Source: Escherichia coli (GTDB lineage: Bacteria; Pseudomonadota; Gammaproteobacteria; Enterobacterales; Enterobacteriaceae). Taken from it: DNA of 64,000 nt. The translations under genes were made by a program, and so were the position numbers. Each line of letters opens with the position of its first letter. Position 1 is the stretch's first letter. The stretch lies in assembly GCF_044647545.1 (NCBI RefSeq), contig NZ_CP172818.1; one strand, 5' to 3'. This document shows positions 33,082 through 33,653 of this stretch, in pieces. The notes beneath the pieces are model-generated. The model was not told where the DNA came from. It saw nothing but the letters and a program-made list of their open reading frames with translations, and did no database searches.

Positions 33082-33450
33082 CGTAACTTACTCATTATTC
33101 TTACATTGACGACTAAGCTGCGGGCAAAGTAACGCCTTTCCGGGTGTGAACCGATGGCCTCGTGTCTAGTCGCGTCGCCAACCTCACGGTTATCGTCAGC
33201 TCAAAGAGGCGCAGAGTGTCGGTTGCCCGTTTTTCATGCGGAAAAACAGCGCAATTATCAAAGAAACAGACTGGGTATTACTCTCCAGAAATATTTCCAT
33301 CTACCGGTAAGGACTGCAACCCGCAGCCCGCTAACTGCCTGAAAGATCAATACGTCTTACGCCATTGCTGCGTGGATGATCGGTCGGGCAAAATGGGTTA
33401 TTCCGTAAAATTTCTTGTTTTAACAAGGATGGACACGGAAACGGCCTCAT
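33082..33450 (-). promoter_or_regulatory. rne long 5' leader / autoregulatory region
   Basis: Long untranslated region upstream of rne start; assignment from established knowledge that rne has a long structured 5' UTR mediating RNase E autoregulation; individual hairpins not mapped. Confidence 0.55.
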
Positions 33451-33653
33451 TATTCCACTGCAAGCCTTGTTATAGCAAGATGACTTTTACCATTTATCAC
33501 CTGCTTACTCACAGTTTTTTCACTTCTTGCTGGTGATTGGTTTAATAACCATCAATAAAGTGATCACGTAGTGAAGTAATAAGGTGCAAAACTAAATATA
33601 AGCATAGAAAAATGAGTGGCGCGAATCCTGTTGGCTAATTAGAATCGCCCACC

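Follow-up and report, generated by a model that had tools for sequence, protein, structure and literature searches.

The leader of rne, the Escherichia coli gene for RNase E, is said to be the subject of the studies by Jain & Belasco 1995, Diwa et al. 2000 and Schuck et al. 2009. According to two published sources, this leader has a length of 361 nt (PMC10989929, PMC1716169), and its hairpin hp2 is described as the RNase E sensor, sufficient for feedback: RNase E binds hp2 and speeds the decay of its own mRNA, which results in negative feedback (PMC1716169, PMC10989929). The opposite strand carries yceQ, whose K-12 entry has the label 'DUF2655 domain-containing protein YceQ' and is still present in the curated NC_000913 annotation. 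Price et al. 2016 obtained zero ribosome-profiling reads for YceQ in three conditions and transposon insertions inside yceQ, and concluded that no protein is encoded by YceQ and that the rne promoter lies in this region (PMC5053530). Many TraDIS insertions, all of a single orientation, were recovered in yceQ by Goodall et al. 2018, who classed it as non-essential (PMC5821084). In the CRISPRi screen of Rousset et al. 2018, the only toxic dCas9 guides were those oriented to block rne transcription, and guides on the yceQ coding strand had no fitness effect (PMC6242692). Furthermore, genome recoding showed that three yceQ serine codons could not be replaced by synonymous codons (PMC7614783), and recoding of yceQ disturbed the adjacent essential gene (bioRxiv 10.1101/2025.03.09.641718).

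Other phantom 'essential' ORFs have been described: ypaB over the nrdA promoter, yaaY in a 5' UTR, and the rnc/era polarity case (PMC5821084, PMC6242692, bioRxiv 10.1101/2025.03.09.641718). In all of them, as in yceQ, the apparent essentiality or unrecodability comes from the regulatory DNA or RNA of a neighbouring essential gene. Unlike ypaB and yaaY, yceQ is antisense to a long structured leader, and its sequence is therefore conserved enough to yield a spurious protein family.

We analyzed a stretch of 64,000 nucleotides of an E. coli genome (assembly GCF_044647545.1, contig NZ_CP172818.1), hereafter the window, whose features are listed in Table 1. According to the sequence and the ORF list, rne and rluC are divergent and the gap between them (33082..33653) has 572 bp. 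The gap is 100% identical to that of E. coli strain FDAARGOS_497, and it was found in 5425 of 5426 complete E. coli genomes, with at least 99% identity in 5391. RefSeq PGAP annotates zero features in the gap in the other E. coli genomes sampled. A previous sequence-only reading had placed rne and the divergent rluC 572 bp apart, with coordinates that proved exact, and had located a 124-codon ORF on the opposite strand, inside the gap and at the position of yceQ, which indeed shares the frame and the stop of b1085. It had also regarded the whole 572 bp as leader: a leader is present, but covers only 361 nt (33082..33442), and the promoter and DNA-level sites take up the remaining 211 bp. As a whole, the gap is the control region already described for rne, with the regulatory leader and the promoter of the E. 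coli RNase E gene. The complete reading, an rne leader and promoter with yceQ as a non-coding antisense frame, is in our judgement very probably right. Both the leader and the phantom yceQ were already known, so that the observation is correct and ordinary.

Table 1. Features of the window discussed in the text, with positions counted from its first nucleotide.
Feature	Position	Strand	Basis
rne (RNase E, 1057 aa)	29908..33081	-	ORF list; same position annotated rne in K-12 and FDAARGOS_497
rluC (23S rRNA pseudouridine synthase, 319 aa)	33654..34613	+	ORF list; annotation in K-12 and FDAARGOS_497
rne 5' untranslated leader, 361 nt, from P1	33082..33442	-	Rfam match start, promoter spacing and published length
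Rfam rne5 (RF00040, RNase E 5' UTR element) match	33106..33442	-	Model positions 1-333 of 333
rne P1 promoter (P1-like): -35 TTGCTA, 18-nt spacer, extended -10 TG-AATAAT	33449..33478	-	Sigma-70 scan
hp2 stem-loop, UTR nt 53-107	33336..33390	-	RNAalifold helices 1-3
hp2 20-mer GCAGCAAUGGCGUAAGACGU	33352..33371	-	Present in at least 120 Enterobacterales genomes
hp3 multi-branched domain, UTR nt 114-328	33115..33329	-	RNAalifold helices 4-9
Double DnaA box TTATCACCT-gc-TTACTCACA	33494..33513	.	Read from sequence; moderate conservation across species
Conserved block TAAGCATAGAAAAATGAGTGGCGC, 32-55 nt upstream of rluC start	33599..33622	+	Mean conservation 0.87, 90 Enterobacterales
yceQ-like ORF, GTG start, 124 codons, TGA stop	33162..33536	+	ORF list; judged non-coding
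Equivalent of K-12 yceQ (b1085, 106 codons)	33216..33536	+	Mapped from NC_000913 1144502..1144822
SraB sRNA	35303..35471	+	Rfam, 210 bits, above gathering score
PyrC leader	10668..10717	-	Rfam, 69 bits, above gathering score
ES036/CssrF sRNA	1495..1537	-	Rfam, 50 bits, above gathering score

The Rfam rne5 model was matched over its full length with 260.1 bits (gathering score 180, E = 3.9e-82), and was recovered again in an Rfam scan of the whole window. With this E-value, the similarity to the rne leader is certainly more than chance. The match lies on the strand of rne and stops 24 nt short of the rne ATG at 33081. Upstream of it, a -35 hexamer at 33478 and a TG-extended -10 finishing at 33449 form the sole sigma-70-like site on both strands of 33000..33750, and both hexamers are at least 95% conserved across 90 Enterobacterales. 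As the -10 ends at 33449, the expected transcription start is about 33442. This coincides with the 5' end of the Rfam match and gives a 361-nt leader. Ow et al. 2002 reportedly described the additional rne promoters p2 and p3; the consensus scan of 33000..33750 found no second minus-strand promoter, and p2 and p3 were not located by it. In relation to the E. coli rne leader represented by RF00040, the window shows the same site directly upstream of rne, the same 361 nt and the same hp2/hp3 architecture. No position out of 361 differs from the K-12 leader; the window thus holds the type example in a different E. coli strain, with no substantive change.

For comparison, loci from at least 120 Enterobacterales were fetched with a 20-nt pattern of the hp2 loop, GCAGCAATGGCGTAAGACGT, and 123 sequences were examined: 120 pattern-selected loci, the window and two E. 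coli references. Within the fetched DNA, the divergent rne-rluC arrangement is seen in 114 of the 123, with a gap usually of 552-600 bp. Gap identity is 98.6% between E. coli and E. albertii, 87-89% with Citrobacter and 81-89% with the genera that show a broken yceQ frame, while dS of the flanking genes is 0.38-0.62 for E. albertii and 0.58-1.37 for Citrobacter. The gap is therefore far more alike than the synonymous sites at its sides, which indicates constraint on every gap position.

Folded alone, the leader has a minimum free energy of -103 kcal/mol, which is no better than that of shuffled sequences (z = -0.66), so that thermodynamics alone gives no support for a structure and covariation is needed. 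For this purpose, alignment A1 contained 37 Enterobacterales leaders with pairwise identity below 92%. RNAalifold predicted a consensus of 48 pairs: hp2, a 9-bp long-range stem closing hp3, and internal hairpins. Standard pairs occupy 97.2% of the cells of this consensus, versus 30-41% after shifting the 3' partners by 1-3 columns, and compensatory (two-sided) changes are found in 16 of the 48 pairs, versus 3-6 pairs in the slid controls. Column shuffles reached the observed value in 0 of 500 cases on four of five measures and in 1 of 500 on the fifth. The compensatory pairs of hp2 are columns 84:134, 92:126 and 93:125; the hp2 20-mer was the fetch pattern, and its invariance among the fetched loci is therefore due to selection of the sample. 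The hp3 domain, closed by the long-range stem, contains sub-hairpins at 33224..33253 and 33150..33223, and its helices 4-9 are 95-99% paired; for example, 20 species have UA at column pair 320:371 and the other 17 have CG. Thus, the check proposed by the sequence-only reading, a structure prediction of the minus-strand leader, returned conserved hp2 and hp3 supported by covariation in the 37 leaders, with free-energy folding alone remaining at z = -0.66. Its claim that the gap holds the structured rne 5' UTR used in autoregulation is likewise borne out by the full-length rne5 match, the P1-like promoter at the right distance and this covariation in 37 species.

These data also bear on whether the conservation of the gap could come from DNA-level elements, such as the rne and rluC promoters and protein-binding sites, instead of folded RNA. 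P1 and the DnaA double box are real DNA sites in the gap, and the leader free energy does not stand out from the shuffles; however, conservation runs 360 nt downstream of the start site, the 16 pairs that change on both sides stay paired and lose their pairing (97 to 30-41%) when slid by 1-3 columns, and the structure-aware Rfam model scores 260 bits. We consider this explanation extremely unlikely.

The rne leader would therefore work in the window as in the described system. Transcription from P1, starting at about 33442 on the minus strand, would give the 361-nt leader, which is predicted to fold into hp1, hp2, the multi-branched hp3 and, finally, a single-stranded ribosome-binding segment. 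Binding of RNase E to hp2 would then accelerate the decay of rne mRNA and close a negative feedback, a step taken from published work (PMC1716169, PMC10989929). Upstream of P1 lie the DnaA double box and a poorly conserved spacer, followed by the conserved block next to rluC, maybe its promoter. On this account, yceQ is not a gene but a frame that by accident is free of stops in the gap as it stands in Escherichia.

Insertions were observed in the leader of several genera. At 33297..33301 (UTR nt 141-145), a poorly conserved apical site of hp3, eight loci show inserts of about 108-128 bp (L036, L039, L071, L082, L061, L055, L040 and L089) and two show inserts of about 250 bp at the same point (L095 and L111). 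Several genomes with an hp3 insert were found, and they belong to Citrobacter, Klebsiella, Raoultella, Kluyvera, Pseudocitrobacter and Enterobacter. Some of these inserts resemble the ERIC core, with 4-6 mismatches to the 22-nt ERIC primer sequences. Inserts are also found elsewhere in the leader: about 80 bp near UTR nt 48 in Erwinia species, and 124 bp near nt 31 in Kluyvera genomosp. 3. Their recurrence at specific loops suggests that the rne leader tolerates, or perhaps exploits, repeat elements at these points.

Upstream of P1, the window shows two closely spaced 9-mers resembling TTATCCACA, predicted to be DnaA boxes in this strain from their match to a K-12 ChIP-seq site. In K-12, a DnaA ChIP-seq peak named '(yceQ) rne' was reported at 1144772, equivalent to 33486 of the window, with a double-box motif (PMC11317965). 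Position 33502, in box 1 (33494..33502), is T in the window and C in K-12, E. albertii and Citrobacter; box 1 thus reads TTATCACCT in the window versus TTATCACCC with C, and this is the sole difference from K-12 within the yceQ ORF. The stretch 33537..33598 is poorly conserved in 90 species. Beyond it, the block at 33599..33622 stands out from flanking sequence with a conservation of 0.23-0.50. The consensus promoter scan of 33000..33750 gave no hit at this block, which is a possible rluC promoter or 5' end judging from its position and conservation. Furthermore, two E. coli strains carry an insertion sequence in this part of the gap. In strain 164, an IS1 that duplicated 9 bp of its target is located at the equivalent of 33595..33603, outside the ORF and 51-59 bp upstream of rluC; in O121 strain 201805972, ISEc11 is at the equivalent of 33517..33519, just upstream of the DnaA boxes and in the last six yceQ codons. 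Both leave P1 and the leader intact, so that the sequence further upstream of P1 appears to be dispensable for viability.

The ORF of the window and K-12 yceQ have the same locus, frame and stop; the former begins 18 codons upstream (33162 versus the internal GTG at 33216), and they differ in a single amino acid, L in the window versus P in K-12, due to T/C at 33502. The 3' quarter of the ORF (33443..33536) overlies rne P1 and the DnaA double box, not leader RNA. In 5000 dinucleotide shuffles of the gap, read on both strands, the probability of an ORF of at least 124 aa was 0.008 and that of at least 106 aa was 0.038. This length, though greater than 99% of the shuffles, is nothing unusual when the intergenic and antisense frames of an entire genome are considered. 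An AGAGG Shine-Dalgarno-like motif is found 6 nt before the GTG at 33216, and the motif itself lies within a conserved RNA stem. The three unrecodable serine codons are probably TCG at 33219 and TCA at 33234 and 33258, all in hp3 (UTR nt 183-224); this assignment relies on their spacing, 15 and 24 nt here versus 14 and 24 in the published recoding (PMC7614783).

Only E. coli and E. albertii keep the full yceQ frame open, and none of the Escherichia sequences analyzed has it broken. In Citrobacter, three gaplessly aligned genomes have a stop at codon 101, and two others acquire many stops through a 2-nt insertion; in Salmonella, a 1-nt insertion shifts the frame, and Enterobacter, Kosakonia, Lelliottia, Trabulsiella and others show multiple stops. 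Between the window and the gapless Citrobacter genomes, substitutions at the three yceQ codon positions were 17:9:12, 15:12:14 and 13:12:12, and dN/dS of the yceQ frame was 0.90-1.16. At the same Citrobacter loci, the control genes showed the expected third-position excess and dN/dS of 0.005-0.009 (rne) and 0.026-0.069 (rluC); including Escherichia as well as Citrobacter, the ranges were 0.000-0.009 and 0.005-0.069, respectively. The 'synonymous' divergence of the yceQ frame, 0.09-0.15, is several-fold below the dS of 0.58-1.37 of the flanking genes, which together with the near-identical gap of E. albertii indicates that all positions are constrained alike, as expected for RNA or DNA signals. 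In addition, no three-base periodicity of conservation was detected across 90 species in the yceQ frame or in an overlapping 62-codon frame (p = 0.37-0.56), versus values of 0.96/0.98/0.64 (p = 3e-44) in the first 124 codons of rne, used as control in the 90 species.

Of all possible single substitutions in the ORF, 5.2% create a stop. The chance that the frame stays open is P = 0.65-0.77 after the 5-8 substitutions seen within Escherichia, and 0.11-0.13 at the distance of Citrobacter; retention in Escherichia is therefore expected by chance, and so is its loss in Citrobacter. The frame would persist in Escherichia because the bases under it are fixed by the RNA structure and the promoter of the opposite strand, so that few mutations accumulate. 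Three E. coli/Shigella database entries (P0007, P0009 and P0016) have a disrupted frame, which could be due to sequencing errors; hence, the published claim that yceQ is broken in some strains is weakly reproduced here.

The codon log-likelihood of yceQ, -0.19 per codon, is lower than that of any of the 35 reference genes in the window (0.09 to 0.46) and falls among the values of 49 non-coding shadow ORFs (-0.07 +/- 0.17), and its cysteine content is 6.5%, versus 1.0% as the value of comparison. Scans of the ORF with Pfam and NCBIfam profiles gave zero matches at E <= 1, so that the 'DUF2655' label was not reproduced from current profiles. A search of 5.8 billion protein clusters found only 32 relatives, all from Enterobacteriaceae, with 68-156 aa and 26-98% query coverage, and tblastn placed all 32 on rne-rluC gaps of the fetched loci, often with frame switches. 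The conserved motif 'YVLRHCC' reads antisense to the hp2 20-mer, whose invariance here comes only from its use as search pattern, and 'CNPQPANC' reads antisense to the long-range stem GCAGUUAGCGGGCUGCGGGUUGCA. On the present reading, what appears as the DUF2655 'protein family' is a set of conserved RNA elements translated in antisense.

Together, these results bear on whether yceQ is a real, young (de novo) gene restricted to Escherichia, translated weakly or in unprofiled conditions from a plus-strand transcript. Such a gene would fit with the frame intact in E. coli and E. albertii, with an ORF length unusual for the region (P = 0.008), with the AGAGG 6 nt before the GTG at 33216 and with the yceQ entry kept in NC_000913. 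However, dN/dS is about 1 without codon periodicity, retention in Escherichia is what chance predicts (P = 0.65-0.77), the codon score is below every reference gene, 33000..33750 contains no plus-strand promoter-like site, and the frame is disrupted in the three E. coli/Shigella entries mentioned above. Published data point in the same direction: zero ribosome-profiling reads in three conditions with insertions tolerated (PMC5053530), and an intolerance to synonymous recoding that is the opposite of protein-level constraint (PMC7614783, bioRxiv 10.1101/2025.03.09.641718). We regard a young yceQ gene as highly improbable. The same small probability is given to a variant of it, in which YceQ would be a very young Escherichia-specific micro-protein, born de novo opposite the rne leader and translated only in conditions so far unprofiled, whose sequence is frozen by the RNA constraint and not by protein-level selection, leaving evolutionary tests blind to it.

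The reading of yceQ as a non-coding frame agrees with the sequence-only reading, which had considered the composition of the ORF not protein-like (a codon score below 35 of 35 reference genes and 6.5% versus 1.0% cysteine now support this) and had proposed to compare the conservation of the frame with that of the nucleotides; the nucleotides are conserved and the yceQ frame is not kept outside Escherichia. Its view that the ORF is more likely a by-product of the structured leader than a gene is upheld by dN/dS of about 1, the lack of periodicity, the loss of the frame outside Escherichia, the non-coding codon usage and the published profiling, transposon and recoding data.

The plus strand could also yield an antisense RNA with a regulatory role, pairing with the rne leader in an excludon-like arrangement with transcription from the rluC side, the ORF being incidental. 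ExcludonFinder lists rne-yceQ as a divergent overlap in E. coli RNA-seq (PMC12288877), and such an RNA would have perfect complementarity to the leader, a property inherent in the arrangement. However, the listing follows from the annotation of yceQ over the rne 5' UTR and does not show that the plus strand is transcribed; the scan of 33000..33750 detected neither a promoter-like nor a terminator-like site on that strand, the CRISPRi guides on the yceQ coding strand had no fitness effect (PMC6242692), and the minus-strand helices with compensatory changes fully account for the conservation pattern. An antisense regulator is very unlikely, and the excludon candidate was rejected on the basis of the absent plus-strand promoter and the strand asymmetry of the CRISPRi data.

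With yceQ read as a non-coding antisense frame over the rne leader and promoter, the locus is a clean negative, in which a conserved structured RNA generates an antisense ORF that looks conserved, a spurious family (DUF2655) and a false 'essential gene' call. The constraint on the leader explains why synonymous recoding fails in such an ORF. The locus may serve as a control case for annotation pipelines, as it combines high nucleotide conservation with dN/dS of about 1, a lack of codon periodicity and a frame that is shifted in sister genera; no new question on RNase E regulation is opened by it.

Long antisense ORFs (110-195 codons) over the rne leader were also observed in distant species, unrelated to yceQ or partly co-linear with it, in other frames or positions: Edwardsiella hoshinae, Kosakonia cowanii, Erwinia rhapontici and loci L006/L022 (Enterobacter sp. 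Bisph1, a MAG). Stop-free antisense frames thus seem to recur over the rne leader without orthology.

Elsewhere in the window, the region from flgL to the rne 3' end (29267..29795) contains a garbled stretch of about 530 bp, rich in homopolymers (long T, A, G and C runs) and flanked by segments with 98% (28195..29266) and 100% (29796..34000) identity to FDAARGOS_497. That strain has a GNAT-toxin/DUF1778-antitoxin pair at this spot, and the window reads like a progressively degraded copy of it; a low-quality or corrupted part of the assembly seems more plausible here than a biological feature. Finally, Rfam matches to SraB, the PyrC leader and ES036/CssrF were obtained outside the rne-rluC gap (Table 1).
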